IMG/VR virus record: IMGVR_UViG_3300010403_000004
Coordinates: 142-64,141 of that record
Strand: one strand, 5' to 3'
DNA: 64,000 nucleotides
From: a virus
Lineage: Duplodnaviria > Caudoviricetes
In this document: piece by piece, positions 22,672 through 55,308 of the stretch
How positions within the stretch are numbered: position 1 is the stretch's first letter
How the letters are laid out: each line of letters starts with the position of its first letter
Notes under the pieces: model-generated
The model's input: the letters and a program-made list of their open reading frames with translations, nothing else
Databases searched by the model: none
What the model was told of the DNA's origin: nothing
Position numbers and translations under genes: made by a program

Positions 22672-23486
22672 CGGATCACCCCCCTCACAGAGCAGTAGAT
22701 CGACGATGCCGTTCCTGCAAGCCAGGTCGCGCCGCCATCGGCACGCGTGCCTCCAGGCCACGCAATCACGGTGATATTGTTGACTGTGGTGTTCGGAATT
22801 ACGGTAGGCACAATCGGCAGAGCCGCGGACTGCGCGTCCGACACGGTGAAGGAATGGTTTCCGCCGTTATTGTCTGCGCACGAGATGAGGTCGATATCGC
22901 AAGTCCTGTTCGCTTGCAAGTCGATCCCGCCGCTGATCACCCAGTTGCCGGCCGAGACGTTCCACGTGTGGATCTTCAGCGCTCCGAACGGAGGCCCGGA
23001 AGTGCTGACGACGGTCGTACACCCGGAACACGTAATCGTCGCCGTTGGCAGGGGATTGTTGACGTAGATCGTCGGCGTCCCCGGTGCACCAGCGGAACCG
23101 CCCACCACGCCGCCATAGATCGTCACCACGCCAACGTCAGCGGCAGTGCCACCCGACAGGGTAGCCGTCTTCGTAGACGTAATCAGCATGTCCGTGGTGG
23201 GGAAGCGGATGTACTCCGGGACCGTCGCGCTCGCCGAGCCGCCCATTGTCAGGACGGTAGCCGACGTACGCGCCACGTCCAACGTTGACCGCGAGCAGAT
23301 TCGCTGCGACGTAGTGGAGAGCAGTTCCCGGAACTGGAAATGATCCCCGCCGACAGGAGAGGTGGAGAGGTTCGGGTAGGTTTGGGATGGAATGGGATCG
23401 GGAACCAGCGCGTTCGATGGCTGGCCCCATGCGGCAGATGCCGCCACGATGAGAATCAGGAGATATTTCGGCATCATTTTTTCCAT
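22668..23486 (-). CDS. secreted virion-like protein with signal peptide
   Basis: [18 protein letters not shown]|Q; beta-rich. Confidence 0.7.
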
Positions 23487-24124
23487 GTCTGTTCGGTAAC
23501 GAGCATGTGGATCGCTCCCACGCTCATGTTAAACTCTTTGGCCAACTCTTTCAACGTGGCCCCGGTGGCTCGTTTGGCTATAATCGCCACCCGCTGATCT
23601 TGGGTGAGTTGCCGTTTCTGCGGCTCCCTTGGACCGACCACTCGTCGCCAATGCTTGCCTTTGACGAGGGGGATAATGGAGCCTAGCGTAACCCCGTACT
23701 TGGCACTCAGCGCCAGTAGCGTCATTCCCGCGGCGCGATCCACCAACACCTGCCCAGCGAGTTCTTCGGTCAGGACTGCGGTGTGAATGCCGACGCCTCG
23801 CGGACGCCGATCTCGCGCAATCGCGTCGGCGCTGTTTTCCTTGTGCGTCCCTGGAATGCAATGGGCCGGATTGACGCACCACTTGTGGTCGCATGTGTGT
23901 CTCCCTAGGAACTTTCCGAGATCAACCCGGTTAGCAATAAAATACGAGATCCGGTGCGCCTTGAAACTCTCCGGCCCGATCCAGAATGTTCCGTATCCGT
24001 CCCCAGATGCCCCGGCGAACCAAGGCCAGCATTCATCGGACCCACCCTTAATGACCTTGGACCAAAAGCGGTCCAAGTCCTTTTGCGAAAGTCGCGGAAT
24101 AGGTTTAGGCTTGTAGTCAGACAT
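23474..24124 (-). CDS. HNH homing endonuclease with C-terminal HTH domains
   Basis: RFWSKV...ECWPW...AHRISY...HTCDHKWCVNPAH; two HTH segments. Confidence 0.85.
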   Translation of the reverse strand: MSDYKPKPIPRLSQKDLDRFWSKVIKGGSDECWPWFAGASGDGYGTFWIGPESFKAHRISYFIANRVDLGKFLGRHTCDHKWCVNPAHCIPGTHKENSADAIARDRRPRGVGIHTAVLTEELAGQVLVDRAAGMTLLALSAKYGVTLGSIIPLVKGKHWRRVVGPREPQKRQLTQDQRVAIIAKRATGATLKELAKEFNMSVGAIHMLVTEQTWKK

Positions 24125-27489: not shown

Positions 27490-29877
27490 CTATTGTACTG
27501 CACCTGCCGCACCAGCAGGCATCCCCTGAGGTGGCGGCATGGCTCCTGGCTTCAACGGAGGCGGCTGGATCTCCGCTTGCACCCCGGGAGGCTCAATCCC
27601 AGCCTTTTGAAGCGCCTGCGTGATAGCCTCATTTCCAAGATCCGAGCCCTTCAGCGACACCGCCACGCTCGCCTTTGCGGGAGGTACCACAGGCGGCACA
27701 ACAGCCTTGGCCTCGTGCGCCTGACCGTACAACTGCACGTTCTCGTAGCCGTCCGGGTTCGATTCCTTGATATCGAAATTGGTGATCAGGTACGCCTTCG
27801 CCAACTTCCCTAAGAACTCGGAGTCGTCTTCCCAATCCGGCTGTATGCTGGCTTGCGGTGGCCCCGGCTGACCGGTCTGAGGATCTATCGGACCTGGTTG
27901 CGGTTTCTCCTGCAACAGCTTGCCGATGATGTCCATGCCCTTGTCGCGGTCGTCAAGGTGCGGCACGCGCATTCCAGGCATCCCGAGCAGTTCCTTGAAC
28001 TCGTGAATGTTGAGCGGATCATCCAAGCCCCACGCCTTCAGGATTTCGGCTGGCTTGTCCAGCATCCACATCAGCAAGTCGCGCTGCTGGCCCCACGTCA
28101 TGGGGATCGCTTCGTCGGCCTCGAAGTGGAAATTGCCGCCCTTCAGGTCTTCGATGGTGACGGTGATGGAATCGAACTTGCCGTACTCGTTCTCCTTCTG
28201 CTTGGAGAACGCCATCACGCCGTCTTCGTTATCGGCCAGCAGCTTGCAGCCCTTCTCGTAGACGCGCTCCAACGACTTGCCGATCATCACCCAAATCACG
28301 GACAGTTGCCGGATGGCGGCGTTCGTCTTCAACTCGCTCTGACGCGCGGTCGGGTCGGACGTGTCGCCGCCCCAGATGATGTCGAGCAACCCGGAAGTTT
28401 CGCGCGATGTTTCTTCCACCTGGCGGCGGAACGGAGGGATCTGTTCCGAGAACGTCACGGTCGTTTGCTGCGAAATCAGATCGTTCAACGTGCCACCCGG
28501 CGGCCGTACGGCGGGGATCAAATCTCCAGGATTGTCGCGTCGGCGTTGCCACGCGTCGAGATCCACGCGCGTTGGGTCCGCGAACCGGGGATCGTTGGAC
28601 CGTTCAAGCGTCTCGTTGCACTGATTGAGGATATTGTTGAGCAAATCCTGAGTGACGATCCAATCGTCGCCCAGCGGCTCGCACATGATTCGCTTCGTCG
28701 GCTCCGGCTGGCATTCCTGCCAGTGGTTTATCACCTTGCGGTTTTCCAGATCGATGACGTGGCCTTTGACCGCCGTGATACGGATGCCGTCGGGGAAATT
28801 CTCGGCGATCAACTCTCGGATCGCCTTGTCGTCGATCAGCTCGTACTGCGCGGTAGTCCAGTCCTCCAGGATCACGCTCCAGCGGTTCTCGCGCTTGGGG
28901 CGCACGATGCCGATGGGGGACGCCATCGCACTGCGGACGCTCTCGCCGTACTGGAGGGACGCGGACTGGTCATCGAACGCGTTTTCTCCGCCCTTGACGG
29001 CTTCGCGCAAGGTGTCCCCGTACTTTTGGAGCAACTTCGCTTTCGGCTGTTCCATCTCCCGGCGAATCCAGCCGCAATCGTTCACCCCTTTACGTCCGTC
29101 GGCATCCAGCGGGACCGAAACCTCGCTCGCGTCGAGGATGTCGATCTCCAGGCCGCCCTTTGGCATCCGCTTTGGTGGAAGGTCCGCCGGCACGCTGGCT
29201 TGTAGCGGGTCCTGGTACATGCCGCCATCAGTCGGAGCCCCGCACTCTGGGCACTCAGGCCCATCGGACATCGCCCCGCACTGTGGACAAGAGATCCCGC
29301 CGCCGATCTGCGCTTGCTCCTCGGCAAGCTGCGGAACATCCTTCCATCCGTACTTGTCTCCGTCCTCCACCCATTCAATCGTCCAGAATGATGTGCCGAA
29401 GTTGAACAGAGAGAACACAAGCCACAGAACCATGACCTGAAGCTCGCACTGTTCGCGGATGTAGAGCGCGGCGTTATTCGCGGCGCGTGCCGCCCGGATA
29501 TCATTTTCGGCGGACGGATTGTTCGGTACGGCTACCGCATTCGGAATGCGCGTGCCAAGGACTGCTTCCAGTTTCCGGCAATACCCGCGGTAGATGTTCT
29601 GCGTGTAGTCGTAGACGCCGTTGCTCTGACCCGCGCCGCCCATTGAACCACCGTCAATGCCGGTCGCATCTAGAAGCCCCTGGTACAGGGCAGGCGCGAA
29701 GTAGGCAAGATCGCGGTAGTAAAGCGAATGCTTGTGGATTCGGCGGAGAATCCAAACTCTATCGGCCTCTAACTCGTCCGCCATCTCGCTCGCTATAACG
29801 CGCGCAATCGGTTTGGCGAGTTTTGCGATGAGTTCTTGTTTGGATGGGGCGGCCTTCGTCGGTCCTAAGATTTCCAT
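27490..29877 (-). CDS. portal protein
   Basis: ~795 aa; YTQNIYR, DIRAARAAN, GGDTSDPTARQSE; between TerL and scaffold; internal CPQC/CPEC. Confidence 0.8.
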   Translation of the reverse strand: MEILGPTKAAPSKQELIAKLAKPIARVIASEMADELEADRVWILRRIHKHSLYYRDLAYFAPALYQGLLDATGIDGGSMGGAGQSNGVYDYTQNIYRGYCRKLEAVLGTRIPNAVAVPNNPSAENDIRAARAANNAALYIREQCELQVMVLWLVFSLFNFGTSFWTIEWVEDGDKYGWKDVPQLAEEQAQIGGGISCPQCGAMSDGPECPECGAPTDGGMYQDPLQASVPADLPPKRMPKGGLEIDILDASEVSVPLDADGRKGVNDCGWIRREMEQPKAKLLQKYGDTLREAVKGGENAFDDQSASLQYGESVRSAMASPIGIVRPKRENRWSVILEDWTTAQYELIDDKAIRELIAENFPDGIRITAVKGHVIDLENRKVINHWQECQPEPTKRIMCEPLGDDWIVTQDLLNNILNQCNETLERSNDPRFADPTRVDLDAWQRRRDNPGDLIPAVRPPGGTLNDLISQQTTVTFSEQIPPFRRQVEETSRETSGLLDIIWGGDTSDPTARQSELKTNAAIRQLSVIWVMIGKSLERVYEKGCKLLADNEDGVMAFSKQKENEYGKFDSITVTIEDLKGGNFHFEADEAIPMTWGQQRDLLMWMLDKPAEILKAWGLDDPLNIHEFKELLGMPGMRVPHLDDRDKGMDIIGKLLQEKPQPGPIDPQTGQPGPPQASIQPDWEDDSEFLGKLAKAYLITNFDIKESNPDGYENVQLYGQAHEAKAVVPPVVPPAKASVAVSLKGSDLGNEAITQALQKAGIEPPGVQAEIQPPPLKPGAMPPPQGMPAGAAGAVQ

Positions 29878-29878
29878 G

Positions 29879-30544
29879 TTAATATGTAACGAGGTGGAGA
29901 GCGTTGAAGCGCACCCCACCTCTCACCAAATCGCCTATCAAGGAGGCAAGATGGCTAAAGCTAAGTTTAGAACAATTCCAGAACTCTCCGCCCATCAGTC
30001 GAAATCCTTTCACGGTAATATCGACAAGAGAGGCATTGATGAATGCTGGCCATGGACTGGCCGCATTATGAAAAAACAGTCCTGCCAATACGGAACATTC
30101 TGCATCACCAAACCGTTCGGAGAAATTCCTGCGCATCGGTTGTCTTTCAAACTCCATAGCGGAATCGACCCGGCGCATCTGTGGGTGCTCCACCGATGCG
30201 ATAATCCGATCTGCGTCAACCCCTCGCATCTGTTTTTGGGAACGTTCCAAGACAACGTTGACGATATGGTCAGAAAGGGACGCCACATGCACGGAGACGG
30301 GCACTACCTGCGACAGCATCCCCGTTGCGGACAGGCGCACAATCGTGCATCGCTCACAGACGCGGAGGCGCTGGAGATAAAGTCCATTTACCCCGCTGGG
30401 GGGCACACGCAGAAGGCGCTCGGCCAGCGTTACGGTGTTTCGGAGGCTTGCATCCAGAAAATCGTAAGCGGCAAAAATTATAGCCACCTGAAGGTGTGAC
30501 CTTGGCTTCGATGGCGCGGGTTTGGTGGGGCCGAGGATTTCCAT
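29879..30544 (-). other. displaced original portal 5' end reading through the antisense of the HNH gene
   Basis: Starts MEILGPTKPAPSK (cf. portal MEILGPTKAAPSK); open for 221 codons; TAA 1 nt before portal ATG. Confidence 0.6.
29951..30499 (+). CDS. HNH homing endonuclease inserted at portal 5' end
   Basis: ECWPW...AHRLSF...LHRCDNPICVNPSHL...DNVDDM; C-terminal HTH; AGGAGG RBS. Confidence 0.9.
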   Translation: MAKAKFRTIPELSAHQSKSFHGNIDKRGIDECWPWTGRIMKKQSCQYGTFCITKPFGEIPAHRLSFKLHSGIDPAHLWVLHRCDNPICVNPSHLFLGTFQDNVDDMVRKGRHMHGDGHYLRQHPRCGQAHNRASLTDAEALEIKSIYPAGGHTQKALGQRYGVSEACIQKIVSGKNYSHLKV

Positions 30545-30547
30545 GCG

Positions 30548-31048
30548 CTAAACCGGTTCCCCCTGAACCTCGTTCATCACGGCCCCGGCGACTCCTTCCC
30601 CCATATGCTTAGCGACTACAGCGAACCTGGGATGGAGTTTCGCGAGCACCGCCATGTCCACATCCCTGTGCATTTGGCGCACTCGCGAGATGGCGGACCT
30701 AGCCGTTTCCTCGCTGGCCTTGAACTGCCGCATGTCTGGCGGCTTCTCCTCCACCCGCTCCGTCATCAGCTTCACGTTCAACGCGTCGAGGCTTTTCAGC
30801 CGATCCTCGGTAATCCGCTGAAGGTCGCCCCGTACCGCCGCAAGTTCCGCGATCAACCGTTCCACCTCGGAGCGCCGCTCAACAGCCAGCACCTCGGCGG
30901 AGATGCGCGCGGCGCGTTCGCGAGCGAGGTCGGTATTCAGCCGCTCCATGTCGCGCTCGTATTCCGCCTCCATCCGCACGGCGGAATCTAACGCCTGCGT
31001 CAACGCGGAGACGCGCTCGGACTGCCGTAGCCGTCGCCAGAGATTCAC
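30548..31048 (-). CDS. coiled-coil hypothetical protein
   Basis: 166 aa heptad-rich; stop 3 nt before original portal ATG. Confidence 0.6.
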   Translation of the reverse strand: MNLWRRLRQSERVSALTQALDSAVRMEAEYERDMERLNTDLARERAARISAEVLAVERRSEVERLIAELAAVRGDLQRITEDRLKSLDALNVKLMTERVEEKPPDMRQFKASEETARSAISRVRQMHRDVDMAVLAKLHPRFAVVAKHMGEGVAGAVMNEVQGEPV

Positions 31049-31359
31049 TGAGTTGCGTCCTCGGTCGGAGCCTTATCGTCCAGGTCCGGTTGTTCCCCGT
31101 CTTCCGCGACCGGCTCGAAATACTGGATGCACGCATCGTCCGGGTCGAAAACCCCTTCCACCGCAGAGCACGCGCCCGTGTCCGGCGAGTAGTTGGCGCA
31201 GTCAATGCAATGGCGATCTGCCTTGACTACGCCAGCCTCTTCGGGAGACGCCTTTCCTTCCCGCTTGGGCTCTTCCATCCCGGGAGGCGGCATCTTGCCC
31301 TCACGCGGACTCGGACCAGATTCCATAACCGCCAATTCAGGTGGCGGAGACTTTGCCAT
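31045..31359 (-). CDS. small protein with HiPIP-like four-Cys motif
   Basis: HCIDCANY...GACSAVEG.FDPDDAC. Confidence 0.5.
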   Translation of the reverse strand: MAKSPPPELAVMESGPSPREGKMPPPGMEEPKREGKASPEEAGVVKADRHCIDCANYSPDTGACSAVEGVFDPDDACIQYFEPVAEDGEQPDLDDKAPTEDATQ

Positions 31360-31388
31360 GCGGACACCTCGATTAACGCTACCACACC

Positions 31389-31850
31389 CTACGCCAAAGG
31401 CACGCTGAACACTGGCGCGAAGAAAATCCAACTGCTCCCGTTCCACTGCACAGGGAACACGGTAGCCCGCAACGGCCCCGGATCAACCGTCACTCCGATG
31501 TCCGTGATGAGGTTGGTCGGCAACGCCACTGTCCAGCCACCGGTCGCGTTCTGCACCAGGCGAAGCCAGAACCGCTGGCCGGTCGGGATACTCCCTGAAC
31601 CGGCGTACGTGAACGTCATGCTCGCGACGTTCGCCGTCAGCGTCATGCTGATAACGTCAGCCAACGAGGAATCAATCGCGGGTGTCGTGGAGAACGCCAT
31701 CGTAGATTGATTGAGCTGGCTTCCGCTATCCACCGATGCGATGAAGTTGAGGTTGTCGGCCACATTGAACAGGCCGAACGGGATCAGCGCAGCCTTGCGC
31801 GACGATGCCTCAAAGTTTGCGAGTTTTGCGAAGTAGGCGGGCGATCCCAT
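31389..31850 (-). CDS. virion accessory protein (fibre C-terminal-like domain)
   Basis: LRLVQNATGGWTVALP...WNGSSW, resembling tail-fibre-associated domains. Confidence 0.55.
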   Translation of the reverse strand: MGSPAYFAKLANFEASSRKAALIPFGLFNVADNLNFIASVDSGSQLNQSTMAFSTTPAIDSSLADVISMTLTANVASMTFTYAGSGSIPTGQRFWLRLVQNATGGWTVALPTNLITDIGVTVDPGPLRATVFPVQWNGSSWIFFAPVFSVPLA

Positions 31851-33710: not shown

Positions 33711-36700
33711 TTACATCCGCGCGAACCGGTGCCCCATCAGCCGGTCACGCCGCACCTGCGCTCGTCCCACCGGCGGCCACGCCATCTCGCGAACCTCCGG
33801 GACCTCGGGCACCGTCCGCGGCACACAGACCGCCAGCAGCAACGCCTCCACGAACGGGGACACGTCAAGGTCCTTGCGAAATGCTCCCAACTCCGCGATC
33901 AACCCGGCGCACGACGGGTGAATCTTGATCTTCGGCCACTCGCCCGTCACCTGCCCCTCCACCATCCCAAGGTACCGGTGATACTCGCGCAAGTCCGCCT
34001 CGGCCAACGCCATGGCCTTATCCCGCTCGTACGGCAACTGCCGGAAGTCCGGAGGTTGGAATGCCAGCAGCCCGCGCAGCCGATCCAACGCCGCGTCCGA
34101 CTCCTCCTCCACCATCTCGCTTCGGATACGCCCTCCTTGCAGCCGAACCCGCGCCGCGTTACGCGCATCCCATCCGCCATCCTCCGGCTCATACGCCAGC
34201 AACGAAGCCTCCATCATCTCCGCCCACGACCCCACCGGCTCGACCGGCGCGAACGCGTGCTTCGGCAGGAATATCTCGTACCCCGCTCTCCCTGCCCGGA
34301 TCTCCCGCACTCCCAACTCCGGCAATACCCGCCGCGCAATCTCTCTCCCGGCCACCATCGCGTCCACCCCAACCAAACTCAACTCCCCCGTGACCCTCAG
34401 CGCACCCGTCCGCAACTCCGCCATCCACAACGCTGCCCGCCCTGGAATAACCGCGACGAACCGCCGTGCCCCAGCGTCAACCCTCTCCCCAGACACATGC
34501 ACCGCCGACGTTGGCTCCCCCATCCGTGGCGCAACGCGGAACTCCGGCACTCCAGCCCTTGCGCTCGCATCGTACAGCCGCTTCAACGCCTGCGACATCG
34601 CGTCCGTGTCATCGTCATGTTTCGCTCCCTGCCCCGCCGCGAACTCCGCCAGCAACTCCCACACCCACGGGAATAGGTCCGGGTTGGGCAAGTAAACATT
34701 CCCCGCCTCCACGTACCCCGAGATGGCCGCCACTCGGCTCCACTTTCCCCCGGCAGGGTTCACCGCGATCAACCCCGGTATCTCGTTCTTCAACGCATCG
34801 ATCACCGCAGGGCCGTTGGCTTTATCCTCGACCAACTTCTCCGAGCACGGCACCCGCTCGCTCATCCTTCGGACGGCCGCCAGCGTCTCCAGAAACGTTC
34901 GATGCTCCGAGTCCCGCTCCAGCAGGTACGAGTTACTTCCAATTCTCCCCCACGCCTGCCCCGCCACGGTATCGTTCTCATCCGTCCCCTTAAACGCCAT
35001 GTCCCACGACTGCACCACTTGCTCAAACACCGCCGGCAACTCCACCGGCGCAATCTCCGCAAACGTTCCGTCCCCAATCGCCAGCCGCACCGGTCTCGGC
35101 TTTCCCTCCGCGTCCACCACTCCCATGCCGGGAGGATTGTAGAACCGGAACCACTCCCGCTTGAGCCCATTCTTGCCACCAGCAGCCGGTTTCTGGTTAA
35201 ATTGGCCTGAATTTTGGGACGCGAAGCCCCATGCCACATAGTTTCCGGTCGTGGTGGTTAGCCCGTAGACCGGCATATACCCAAGCGGACGCATTGAAAT
35301 CACGTGATGGTTTTTTTTGTCCTTGGATCGATGCACGGGCTCAGAAAGAGATTTCCCAGCCATCCACAGGCTATCGATGATCCTCTGCCGTTTGACCATG
35401 TGGCAGTGAGCTAGTATCTTAATTTTTGACGACCGTCCGCCGTGAATATTATAAATTCCCGACTCGTGCCATTTAGGATTGTCTTGTCTCTTTTTGACGC
35501 GGCCATCTTTGTCGCGTGCGCCACGCCAAACTGAATACTCGAAGCCAAGCCGCGGGATCACCCTCTCCAGTTCGGCTTGAACGTCAGGATTTTTGGCTGA
35601 TTGGCTTATTGATACCAGGTTCTTTTGGCAGCAGCTCCCCTCTCCATCGATCATGCCCCCGAGCCAGTCGTATAGTCTTTGGTCCTCTGCGTTGCAATCT
35701 CCGCTGGGAGTGTATACGGAATGAAGTTTGCTTCTCACCTTTAGCGGCAAATAGGATGCTCGGTTGCGTCCCTTTGCTCTGTACCATTTATGGTCTTTAG
35801 TGCAATGGACCGTGCGCCCACTGGAAAGAGAATATTCGTACACCATCTGTTGCGAAACGCTAATATCGGTGACGCGGCATTTAGTTAACGACGCCTTGAG
35901 TTTGTGCCCGTGGACTTGCCCCACCTGCAACCTGGCATCGTTCTCCGGCTTGACATACCCAACCAACTCATCCCCGACATTCACGTCCTTGATCTGTTTT
36001 TCTGACCAGTCAGCCATCAGTATCGGCGTGTATCCAGGCGTGCAGTAATGCTGTCGCTGTTCTCTTTTCAAAAGATCCGTCTCTTCCGGCCCCAATCGCT
36101 CCGGAAACAGCAACTCCCCATGCCTCGTCCTCGGGTCCGGATACGCCAGCGGCCCAATCGTCCGCGCCCCATCCCACTCGTTCGGAATCACCACCTGCTC
36201 CCAGCCGCCCATTTCCAACAGGTACTCCGTTAGGTCGCCGCCGTACGATGCCCGCTGCTGAATGACTAGCCTACAGTCCGTCTTCGGATCGATATTCCGC
36301 GAAGACATCGAACCCGAGTACCACTCCCGAACCGATTGCGGATACGTCTCCGGCTCCTTGTTCATCCTTTCCAGATCATTCGGATCGTCGATGATGACCA
36401 CCGACCCACCCTCACCAAGGACGCCGCCCTCGACCGACGCGATGATCCGGAACCCGCCCTTGTCGTTCTCAAACCGGCCCTTCTCGTTCTGGTCACCAGA
36501 GAGTTGGAACTTGGAGCCCCAGCGCGACTGGTACCACTGCGAAGCAATCAGGTTTCGACACCGGCGCGAGTCCCTCTTCGCCAGCGTCAAGCCGAACGAC
36601 GCCGCCAAAAACTTCTCCTGCGGCGCCTTCAGCCATCGCCACGCCGGGAACGCCACTGAAACCAGGGAACTTTTCAGCATTCTGGGGGGCACATTAATTA

Positions 36701-36950
36701 TGAGACGGCGAATCTCCCGCCTCGACAACGCCTGCAAATACTCGCAAAGCATACTGATGTGCCAATTTTTCTGGAATGGTACCCCAGGCTGCAACGCCGG
36801 CCAAGACTGCTCCAGAAAGAACTCCAAACTCTCCTCGCAGTACTCCGCATCCGCCTGCAACTCTATCGCCCGGATCGCCTCCTCCGCCACCCGCAACGCC
36901 CTGTCAGACGTGTACTGGCTCGGCGGCCTCTTCCCTGTGGCTCTTGGCAT
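33711..36950 (-). CDS. terL: terminase large subunit with intein
   Basis: RLIINVPPRMLKS (Walker A region), IIDDP (Walker B), SWDMAFK, VEDKANG, HDDDTDAMSQAL. Confidence 0.92.
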   Translation of the reverse strand: MPRATGKRPPSQYTSDRALRVAEEAIRAIELQADAEYCEESLEFFLEQSWPALQPGVPFQKNWHISMLCEYLQALSRREIRRLIINVPPRMLKSSLVSVAFPAWRWLKAPQEKFLAASFGLTLAKRDSRRCRNLIASQWYQSRWGSKFQLSGDQNEKGRFENDKGGFRIIASVEGGVLGEGGSVVIIDDPNDLERMNKEPETYPQSVREWYSGSMSSRNIDPKTDCRLVIQQRASYGGDLTEYLLEMGGWEQVVIPNEWDGARTIGPLAYPDPRTRHGELLFPERLGPEETDLLKREQRQHYCTPGYTPILMADWSEKQIKDVNVGDELVGYVKPENDARLQVGQVHGHKLKASLTKCRVTDISVSQQMVYEYSLSSGRTVHCTKDHKWYRAKGRNRASYLPLKVRSKLHSVYTPSGDCNAEDQRLYDWLGGMIDGEGSCCQKNLVSISQSAKNPDVQAELERVIPRLGFEYSVWRGARDKDGRVKKRQDNPKWHESGIYNIHGGRSSKIKILAHCHMVKRQRIIDSLWMAGKSLSEPVHRSKDKKNHHVISMRPLGYMPVYGLTTTTGNYVAWGFASQNSGQFNQKPAAGGKNGLKREWFRFYNPPGMGVVDAEGKPRPVRLAIGDGTFAEIAPVELPAVFEQVVQSWDMAFKGTDENDTVAGQAWGRIGSNSYLLERDSEHRTFLETLAAVRRMSERVPCSEKLVEDKANGPAVIDALKNEIPGLIAVNPAGGKWSRVAAISGYVEAGNVYLPNPDLFPWVWELLAEFAAGQGAKHDDDTDAMSQALKRLYDASARAGVPEFRVAPRMGEPTSAVHVSGERVDAGARRFVAVIPGRAALWMAELRTGALRVTGELSLVGVDAMVAGREIARRVLPELGVREIRAGRAGYEIFLPKHAFAPVEPVGSWAEMMEASLLAYEPEDGGWDARNAARVRLQGGRIRSEMVEEESDAALDRLRGLLAFQPPDFRQLPYERDKAMALAEADLREYHRYLGMVEGQVTGEWPKIKIHPSCAGLIAELGAFRKDLDVSPFVEALLLAVCVPRTVPEVPEVREMAWPPVGRAQVRRDRLMGHRFARM
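35211..36044 (-). mobile_element. intein with LAGLIDADG endonuclease (278 aa)
   Basis: Y|CTPGYTPILMAD...IKDVNVGD; CTKDHKW; WLGGMIDGEGS; VYGLTTTTGNYVAWGFASQN|S. Confidence 0.9.
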
Positions 36951-53975: not shown

Positions 53976-54148
53976 TGCAACACGTGACAATCACAGCGGC
54001 CGGCACGTACGCCGCCAGCACCATCAAGCCCGAGTTGGTTGAATCGCTTCGCGCCAGCATCGAGCAACACATGAAGGCGTATGGCCTGAAAGAGATCGAG
54101 ATTACCGCGCGGGTGTGCGGATGTCGGAAGAAAGCTGAGGTTGCCTGA
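53975..54148 (+). CDS. small hypothetical protein
   Basis: TGATG coupling. Confidence 0.45.
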   Translation: MQHVTITAAGTYAASTIKPELVESLRASIEQHMKAYGLKEIEITARVCGCRKKAEVA

Positions 54149-54149
54149 A

Positions 54150-54938
54150 ATGGGACAGACGACAGAGATTTCCTGGACTGACCACACATTCAACCCTTGG
54201 GCCGGATGCGTGAAGGTGTCGCCAGAATGCGATAACTGCTACGCCGAAAAGGACACCAACCGGCGCGGGTTCGTGAAGTGGGGGAAGGACGCGCCCCGGC
54301 GGCGTACGGTGCCGAGTTATTGGAATCAATTGGAAAAATGGAATCGCCACGCGTGCTCGACTGGCGTACGCGAGCGCGTGTTCATCGGCTCCTGGTGTGA
54401 CATCATGGAGGAAAACCCGCAATTGACGCCGATTCGGTGTGATCTGTGGCCACGGCTGGAACAGAGCGCGTATCTCGATAAGCTGCTGTTGACGAAGCGC
54501 CCGCAGAACTTCCGGAGATTCCTGCCGCGTTGGTGGATCGAGAACCCACGTACCGACGTGTGGGGTATGACCACGGCGGGAATGGCTTCCTCGAAATGGC
54601 GGATAGACGCTCTACGCGATACGCCTTTCGTGGTGCGCGGGCTCAGTATGGAGCCGCTGTTGGGTCCTATGGGCACACTCGACCTCCGTGGCATTCACTG
54701 GGTCATTGTGGGCGGGGAGAGTCAGCACGGCGCGCGTGCGATGCGGCCGGAGTGGGCGCGCGAGATTCGCGATCAGTGCGTAGCTGCTGGCGTGGCGTTC
54801 CATTTCAAGCAATTTGGCGAACACAATTCAGAACTGATTCACGTGGGCAAAAAAGCGGCTGGAAGACTCCTAGACGGCAGGGAATGGAATCAGTTCCCTG
54901 CGCTTCGCGACGGAAAGGTGGTGACGGTTGGCGAATAG
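54150..54938 (+). CDS. DUF5131 (Gp37Gp68, radical-SAM-like) protein
   Basis: TEISWTDHTFNPWAGCVKVSPECDNCYA, LLTKRP, SMEPLLG, WVIVGGES. Confidence 0.9.
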   Translation: MGQTTEISWTDHTFNPWAGCVKVSPECDNCYAEKDTNRRGFVKWGKDAPRRRTVPSYWNQLEKWNRHACSTGVRERVFIGSWCDIMEENPQLTPIRCDLWPRLEQSAYLDKLLLTKRPQNFRRFLPRWWIENPRTDVWGMTTAGMASSKWRIDALRDTPFVVRGLSMEPLLGPMGTLDLRGIHWVIVGGESQHGARAMRPEWAREIRDQCVAAGVAFHFKQFGEHNSELIHVGKKAAGRLLDGREWNQFPALRDGKVVTVGE

Positions 54939-55308
54939 CACTGAAGCAGTGCGCCGATGGCGCACAAAGCAAAGATCATTGGGATTGTCAGTACATGGGC
55001 CCGTTCGTCTCGCCAAACAGGCCGCATGGCTGAAGTCCACCTATTACGATCTGCGGTCAAGGCTCTACGATATTGTCGGTCGAGAATGTGTGTGGTGTGG
55101 GCACGACGATGTACGCGTATTGGAGTTTGACCACATCGCGGATGACGGAGCGAACGACCGCAGAGAGTTTCAAGGAGCGAGATCTATGCTGGATTATTAT
55201 GTGACACGGCCTGATGAGGCCAAGGCGCGGCTTCAATCGCTCTGCCGAAATTGTAATTGGCTGAAGCGTAAAGGATTCACGCGCGAACAGAAGCGAGGCG
55301 CGGCATGA
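54928..55308 (+). CDS. HNH endonuclease
   Basis: CVWCG...LEFDHI...QSLCRNCN. Confidence 0.75.
   Translation: MANSTEAVRRWRTKQRSLGLSVHGPVRLAKQAAWLKSTYYDLRSRLYDIVGRECVWCGHDDVRVLEFDHIADDGANDRREFQGARSMLDYYVTRPDEAKARLQSLCRNCNWLKRKGFTREQKRGAA

Follow-up and report, generated by a model that had tools for sequence, protein, structure and literature searches.

The DNA analysed here, referred to as the window, is a stretch of 64,000 nucleotides (nt) covering positions 142 to 64,141 of the IMG/VR record IMGVR_UViG_3300010403_000004, a virus of the Caudoviricetes (Duplodnaviria), and the element in question is a reversed gene of the HNH endonuclease type lodged at the start of the portal gene. The window represents nearly all of the 64,141-bp record, which carries direct terminal repeats and was rated complete; its guanine-plus-cytosine (GC) fraction is about 0.60, and the phage is a podovirus-like soil phage whose genes between about 300 and 31,450 lie mostly on the minus strand. 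Within this block, up166 (30548..31048, minus strand, 166 amino acids (aa)) precedes the portal gene (27490..29877, minus strand, 795 aa). The gene up166, taken from the list of open reading frames (ORFs), had no match in Pfam or PHROGs, and its homologues stand upstream of the portal gene in relatives. Between the two genes lies the HNH gene (29951..30499, plus strand, 182 aa). As a preliminary description of this DNA had claimed, the portal N-terminus occurs twice, mostly with different synonymous codons: on the minus strand, the ATG at 30544 reads MEILGPTKPAPSK and the ATG at 29877 reads MEILGPTKAAPSK. Of 13 residues, the two copies have 12 in common; 10 of 39 nt are changed, nine times synonymously and once from Pro to Ala. 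The accounts given there of an oppositely oriented HNH gene between the copies, and of a new portal start without a Shine-Dalgarno sequence, reached by a 221-codon frame that opens at the upstream copy and ends in TAA-C-ATG, were likewise accurate.

The 795-aa protein is a portal by its predicted fold. An AlphaFold2 model built from 96 sequences reached a predicted local distance difference test (pLDDT) value of 88.6 (an earlier model from only eight sequences, with a pLDDT of 37.7, was discarded), and its best fold matches in the PDB were the portals of N4, Pa223, SU10, T7 and P22, with E values down to 1.7e-15 and a probability of 1.00. The gene also obtained an Atlas feature score of 0.97 to P22_portal clusters, and 985 relatives were collected at E <= 0.001. 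The portal label of the preliminary description was in this way confirmed, even though neither Pfam nor PHROGs returned an at-threshold match for the window protein. The Pfam P22_portal gathering score was also not reached by seven relatives, and among ten remote relatives only one attained 18.6 bits (cut-off 26.1). A tblastn search of GenBank phages with the portal gave no match, and against the sequences of the PDB a profile search yielded nothing beyond zinc-ribbon matches due to chance. In the model, residues 1-12 form a tail ahead of the first helix. Residues 197-212 (window 29236-29289, minus strand) form a four-cysteine, zinc-ribbon-like insert whose C197, C200, C209 and C212 were nearly invariant across the 96 relatives; Zn-ribbon matches in Pfam were weak.

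Alignment with HNH-free relatives, which had been proposed as a check, revealed empty sites in five contigs. Homologues of the portal, 45-90% identical, were found on ten viral contigs, and up166 homologues were present upstream of it in L001-L005 and L242. In L001 (90% aa identity), L002 and L003 only 0-3 nt separate the end of the up166 homologue from the portal ATG, and the HNH gene is missing. The same arrangement, up166 abutting the portal gene, was found in L242, a contig from the genome-contig scan that is binned with an Acidobacteriaceae metagenome-assembled genome, which gives a weak hint at the host. The portal match of L242 (871-3160) came in three query-overlapping pieces, as if frameshifted or misassembled. 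The fifth empty site was in X2, a 9185-nt contig of another soil run, whose portal start aligns to the upstream copy of the window and not to the downstream one. Among the DNA contigs of the likely source run only the HNH-bearing form was found. Close relatives are polymorphic, at one conserved site, for the presence of the HNH gene.

The extent of the insert followed from blastn comparison with L001. Window positions 31374-30503 matched L001 3158-4042 and window positions 29877-27400 matched L001 4001-6477; therefore, 42 nt of L001 occur twice in the window, and 625 bp (29878-30502), hereafter the cassette, are extra and inserted after portal codon 13-14, with the HNH gene opposite to the portal. 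Alignment of both copies to one and the same 42-nt segment of HNH-free L001 (4001-4042) means that the gene start was duplicated and that their resemblance is not due to chance. The upstream copy (30503..30544, minus strand; ATG and 13 codons), which continues the alignment of up166, shows 5, 4 and 9 differences in 39 nt from L001, L002 and L003, the initial 21 nt matching L001 exactly, and is regarded as a relic of the resident portal 5' end. The downstream copy (29839..29877, minus strand), which supplies the first 13 codons of the working portal gene, differs from the same three relatives at 12, 13 and 12 of 39 nt, almost always synonymously. On these alignments, insertion accompanied by replacement of the gene start is well supported.

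Synonymous divergence from L001 was raised at the beginning of the portal gene (16 of 25 comparable codons within codons 1-30, against 40-43% in bins past codon 80), and the foreign or re-spelled tract may consequently extend about 90 nt into the gene. Two origins can be envisaged for the working copy. Its near-equal distance from all relatives favours import from a distant donor, and the lineage-specific Lys8, a residue variable among relatives and present in both the relic and the working copy, favours re-spelling in place. The working copy being continuous with the gene, an unchanged spelling would rebuild the full target; re-spelling is what one would expect of a protection against cleavage by the carrier's own endonuclease.

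The HNH gene product matched Pfam HNH_3 (E 1.4e-6, 28.2 bits, cut-off 24.8) and phrog_59 (9e-25), and its C-terminal part resembled a helix-turn-helix (HTH) DNA-binding domain (phrog_517 HTH, 3.5e-5, residues 122-174). Endonuclease genes often reside in group I introns of phage structural genes, and the upstream copy has an intact start; the region between the copies could on these grounds be a self-splicing intron, or another spliced or bypassed element with an antisense endonuclease, so that the message would join the 30544 copy to the portal body. This is highly improbable. An Rfam scan of 29400-31000 on both strands yielded no intron model at E <= 1, only two unrelated families below threshold, and the complete second start, with its ATG directly before the portal body and matching the same 42 nt as the first, would be needless if the message were spliced. 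An intein is excluded, since the gene lies on the strand opposite to its host gene. The intron-less homing element with a recoded portal start of the preliminary description is thus upheld by the empty sites, the relative-like relic, the diverged working copy and the negative intron scan. With a homing-type domain, a polymorphic site and neither an intron nor an intein as carrier, the gene can be classified as a putative free-standing HNH homing endonuclease, cleavage and homing being predicted activities.

The HNH gene belongs by position to the packaging module, the large terminase gene lying three genes upstream, which brings to mind an accessory of the packaging machinery of terminase and portal (HK97 gp74 type), with the duplication incidental; HNH genes adjoining terminase genes are described in the relevant part of PMC3592412. 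Such a role is hardly credible here. An accessory would be conserved, whereas the gene is absent from the site in the five contigs named above, and the protein combines HNH_3 with an HTH, a homing type, inserted in coding sequence with a target duplication. Moreover, among its 865 homologues at E <= 1e-10, the nearest non-self one, P0002 on a 1415-bp contig, is 64% identical and the others are spread over unrelated phage contexts; the motif block CDNPICVN, used as a search pattern, recurs in homologues.

The 73-nt stretch between the HNH ATG and the portal ATG, which run in opposite directions, folds as two hairpins. The smaller one contains the HNH Shine-Dalgarno sequence AAGGAGG (29940..29946, plus strand), 4 nt before the HNH ATG. 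The stable one (29891..29922, 9 + 3 bp; -38.8 kcal/mol and z -2.9 for the 111-nt fold) lies 13 nt upstream of the portal ATG on the minus strand, and on the plus strand it corresponds to the predicted 5' end of the HNH transcript. A match of this region (29890-29958, plus strand) to Rfam RF00043, an R1162-like plasmid antisense RNA, scored 28.4 bits against a gathering score of 55 and was dismissed as a chance match to hairpin and Shine-Dalgarno sequence. The extended -10-like motif TGTTAATAT (29877..29885, plus strand) is the sole match in the window; it overlaps the complement of the portal start codon and is a candidate HNH promoter. The earlier claim of an extended -10 was therefore correct as to the motif and gained comparative support from the cassette described below, although a simple sigma-70 consensus scan called no promoter-like site on either strand of 29400-31600.

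That second cassette, in contig L007 (2876-3560), is also backward and 34% identical in its HNH gene, and it occupies another site of this operon, with the homologues of up133 and up166 on either side. The leader motif ATCGCCTnTnAAGGAGG matched, among 241 loci, only the window's own locus (L011), L007 and a metagenome copy of the latter (L093). L007 has the same two-hairpin layout, with a hairpin at the matching place formed by other stem letters, the same ATCGCCTnTnAAGGAGGCAA block and, at the place matching TGTTAATAT, the only TGNTAANAT match of its locus (TGGTAAGAT). L006 (2582-3554) has a 192-aa gene where L007 has the HNH cassette. The first 19 or so codons of the L007 host gene beside the cassette are re-spelled with respect to L006, and identity is 95% from 3555 on. 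Because the host gene start is re-spelled there too, bringing a host gene start seems to be a habit of this cassette type.

Both portal starts of the window belong to stop-start junctions. The up166 stop TAG (30550-30548) is 3 nt before the old portal ATG, giving TAG-CGC-ATG at 30550-30542, and TAA (29881-29879), then C, then the ATG at 29877 give TAA-C-ATG at 29881-29875. From the old ATG to this TAA, 1 nt before the new ATG, runs a candidate bridging ORF of 221 codons (29879..30544, minus strand), codon-aligned in antisense to the HNH gene and matching no protein family. This mirror frame is free of stops because the 12 Leu and 12 Ser codons of the HNH gene include none of TTA, CTA and TCA, which are stops in antisense. 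Of 12 related loci examined (two of them duplicates), 11 have an ORF of 139 codons or more in the portal's orientation that ends -1 to +11 nt from the portal start, and L242 is alike. An extra 117-aa gene stands between up166 and the portal in L004 (3646-3999), overlapping the up166 stop by one base and ending in TAG-C-ATG at the portal start. Judged from these alignments, stop-start chaining is a local rule, and both junctions of the window rebuild the chain of the family.

These observations raise the possibility, put forward in the preliminary description, that the 221-codon frame delivers ribosomes to the new portal start, for which no GGAG, GAGG or AGGA was found at -18..-4 of the ATG at 29877. 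In a null model of this geometry (20,000 draws, synonymous codons resampled and spacer shuffled), 91.6% of the draws met a stop inside the HNH gene, 4.6% stopped in the spacer more than 12 nt early and 3.25% ran past the start, leaving 0.54% that ended within 12 nt of the ATG. Several findings weigh on the other side. An HNH body open in antisense has a chance of 0.08 from codon usage, the mirror frame is open in 13% of 182-codon windows taken from the genes of this phage, and the portal gene itself has a 450-codon ORF in that frame. A Shine-Dalgarno core was present in 18 of 52 crude gene starts, so that its lack at the portal (34 of 52 being without) is nothing unusual. The region from -20 to +20 has a GC fraction of 0.42 and a fold of -2.5 kcal/mol at the working start, against 0.62 and -9.5 kcal/mol at the relic (GC in the start regions of the close relatives L001-L004 is 0.57-0.65), and stand-alone initiation is possible there. 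The L007 cassette, which has the same leader, has an ORF of only 76 codons ending 6 nt before its host ATG. A weak terminator-like hairpin with a T-run, of a kind equally frequent in shuffles, lies just past the relic codons (30501-30482, minus strand).

From these points, an alternative can be built that keeps the same insertion and start replacement but treats the 221-codon ORF as a by-product of GC-biased codon usage. The portal would then initiate independently on the AU-rich, unstructured leader of the cassette, possibly from a transcript starting in or near it. The chance openness of the mirror frame, the frequency of starts without a Shine-Dalgarno sequence, the relaxed fold of the new start and the hairpin, AU-rich leader and ATG design of L007 without a full bridge all agree with this explanation, as does the fact that most backward HNH genes of the census below are unbridged. 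It is opposed by the rarity of the joint geometry in the null draws, by the enrichment of spanning frames in backward embedded genes, by the preserved ancestral coupling context of the relic, through which ribosomes would very likely enter the frame anyway, and by the negative promoter scan on both strands. We consider it a serious possibility, if one with distinctly less than an even chance.

The question whether antisense openness accompanies backward insertion was addressed by a census of independent loci. Three HNH queries gave 219 loci, reduced to 168 clusters at 80% identity and 162 representatives of at least 120 codons. The tightly embedded backward class comprised HNH genes that run against both neighbours and lie no more than 150 nt from either (n=10); neighbours and flank orientation were taken from a crude longest-ORF heuristic, which tempers what the counts can say in favour of a relay. 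A spanning stop-free antisense frame was present in three of these ten genes, compared with 6 of 152 others (Fisher p = 0.012) or with 2 of 67 co-oriented ones (Fisher p = 0.014). The open backward genes were L015/L100, L019 and L221. In L015 (1921-2526, HNH GC 0.37), TAA, 5 nt and ATG open a frame of 198 codons that ends in TAA|ATG. In L019 (2899-3606), the frame overlaps the end of the preceding gene by 14 nt, and its TGA overlaps the next ATG. In L221 (948-1520), a stop-free antisense ORF runs from the gene before to the gene after. Seven of the ten, L007 among them, were unbridged, which speaks against the relay.

Among 69 HNH genes with a GC fraction below 0.45, only the backward L015 was open, and none of the 66 low-GC genes outside the tightly embedded backward class was. 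An initial view of the L015 frame as astronomically unlikely was rejected, its probability being 0.069 with the codon usage of the flanks (7 Leu and 10 Ser codons). Openness was likewise rejected as a trait of the HNH family, since regardless of orientation only 5 of 80 homologues were open; within the same GC class, 1 of 11 was. In the search for antisense stop depletion suggested earlier, open frames were thus in excess in backward embedded genes and few among homologues overall. The relay claim itself has evidence on both sides. Stop-start adjacency across the family, the rare geometry and the enrichment in the census speak for it; chance openness at the 8-13% level, the unbridged L007 and the commonness of starts without Shine-Dalgarno sequences speak against it.

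Taken together, the data lead us to lean slightly towards a reversed HNH cassette with gene-start replacement and a 221-codon relay to the new portal start. The structural part of this model is shown by the comparison with relatives: a free-standing cassette of about 625 bp is inserted in reverse after portal codon 13-14, with an endonuclease gene, a two-hairpin leader and a likely extended -10 promoter, and is followed by the differently spelled first 13 portal codons. The portal protein therefore stays intact, with the presumed recognition DNA broken in the relic and altered in the working copy. In the further, inferred part, the operon transcript would have to pass through the insert. As the whole ancestral initiation context (up166 stop, 3 nt, ATG) is kept, the relic should still receive ribosomes, which would start on the 221-codon frame, terminate at the TAA one base before the new portal ATG and possibly re-initiate there. 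With ribosomes passing, this stretch of messenger RNA would stay translated, so that polarity would be avoided, and the hairpin immediately before the start would be melted. Some independent initiation may come from the AU-rich leader, which doubles as the HNH promoter on the opposite strand.

The relay step taken alone stands at about an even chance or somewhat better, and stand-alone initiation is a tentative option, to which we assign about a third of our confidence; the two can coexist. A wider proposition falls somewhat short of an even chance, namely that backward homing endonuclease genes in tightly coupled phage operons are selected against TTA, CTA and TCA, so that a functionless mirror cistron hands ribosomes to the next gene. 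In the present case, that cistron would be launched by an orphaned start and coupled to a cleavage-immune, re-spelled one, and the rescue would comprise three parts: the replaced start, the relay ORF and a leader shared with the opposite-strand promoter.

Other features of the window are recorded here for completeness. A second HNH paralogue (23474-24124, minus strand), 36% identical to the first, points the same way as the structural genes and has its own AGGAG and a C-terminal sigma-70 region 4-like HTH. On the plus strand, 54141-55308 contains a DUF5131 gene (Pfam, 2.8e-68) and, after it, an ORF of 126 aa in which a classic HNH motif was recognized by eye, with no Pfam match at E <= 0.001. 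The large terminase gene (33711-36950, minus strand; phrog_38, 4.6e-71) encodes an unusually long product of 1079 aa with family matches over about residues 27-248 and 581-802; some 330 residues between these matches and about 280 C-terminal residues have no family match. The GC fraction falls to 0.53 at 35001-36000, within the region of this gene.

Cassettes that interrupt an essential gene and come with a translational or structural fix by which the gene remains functional and the target site is destroyed are reportedly represented by T4 mobA with the gene 60 bypass element and by the mobE-split nrdA of phage Aeh1. The fixes there are said to be ribosomal bypassing or a split protein, unlike the replaced start and possible relay ORF considered here. 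The closest parallel to the gene-start replacement was found in the mobile endonuclease ORFs (mORFs) of fungal mitochondria (Allomyces macrogynus atp6; Glomus atp6, atp9, cox2 and nad3), for which the relevant part of PMC3630166 describes duplicated gene ends, the native one 91-98% identical to the sister species and the inserted one 64-81%. In both systems, an endonuclease ORF in the terminal part of a host gene brings a foreign or diverged copy of the gene end and orphans the native end, and the orphan is nearer to relatives than the working copy (here 4-9 versus 12-13 differences in 39 nt). The mORFs, as far as that account goes, concern the 3' end of mitochondrial genes and encode LAGLIDADG or GIY-YIG enzymes, co-oriented and often in phase. 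In the window, a reversed HNH gene has affected a phage portal gene at its 5' end, and what has been orphaned is a start codon from which a long antisense frame runs.

The free-standing homing endonucleases of T4-type phages (seg and mob) are comparable in being intron-less and located between or within essential late genes, with hairpins at the ribosome-binding site and promoter choice limiting their expression (PMC2988022). According to the part of this review that deals with them, segD, between genes 23 and 24, is the only backward endonuclease gene of T4, and the concern is raised that an insert must not disturb the expression of its neighbours. The T4 elements lie between genes, and that part mentions neither a duplicated gene end nor a stop-free antisense frame for segD (PMC2988022). 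Cleavage and homing were demonstrated for several T4 enzymes (PMC2988022) and are predicted for the HNH protein of the window.

In the hidden HNH genes of the ShiLan type, in actinophage DNA methylase genes, the HNH gene overlaps a host-strand frame that is stop-free across the insert, as in the window, and host translation can therefore pass through the selfish insert (PMC11855218). There, the HNH gene lies out of frame on the same strand and read-through adds a loop to the methylase (PMC11855218); here it is on the opposite strand, and the read-through frame is a separate ORF that ends before the host restart. The few nt separating stop and start at both junctions of the window also recall termination-reinitiation coupling of overlapping or abutting genes (PMC6728339); the middle cistron of the window differs in being antisense to another gene and seemingly without a protein function of its own. 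A literature search of open-access papers and preprints retrieved no stop-free antisense relay over an endonuclease gene and no phage gene with a replaced 5' end.

On the prevailing view, homing endonucleases persist by harming their hosts little. The locus described here combines two devices that limit harm, a start replacement shown by comparison with relatives and, if it holds, a relay of ribosomes across the insert. Gene-end replacement, known for 3' ends in fungal mitochondria, thus extends to 5' ends, here in a phage gene for an essential structural protein, and the presence in one genome of a dated pair of targets, before and after the insertion, permits a direct guess at the recognition site of the enzyme. 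If true, the relay would represent a new constraint, by which the codon choice of a selfish gene is shaped by the translatability of the opposite strand. Antisense ORFs of this kind are discarded by annotators as artefacts; should some be functional relays, a layer of phage operon design would have remained hidden, and such relays would matter for phage engineering and for the reading of selection on synonymous sites.

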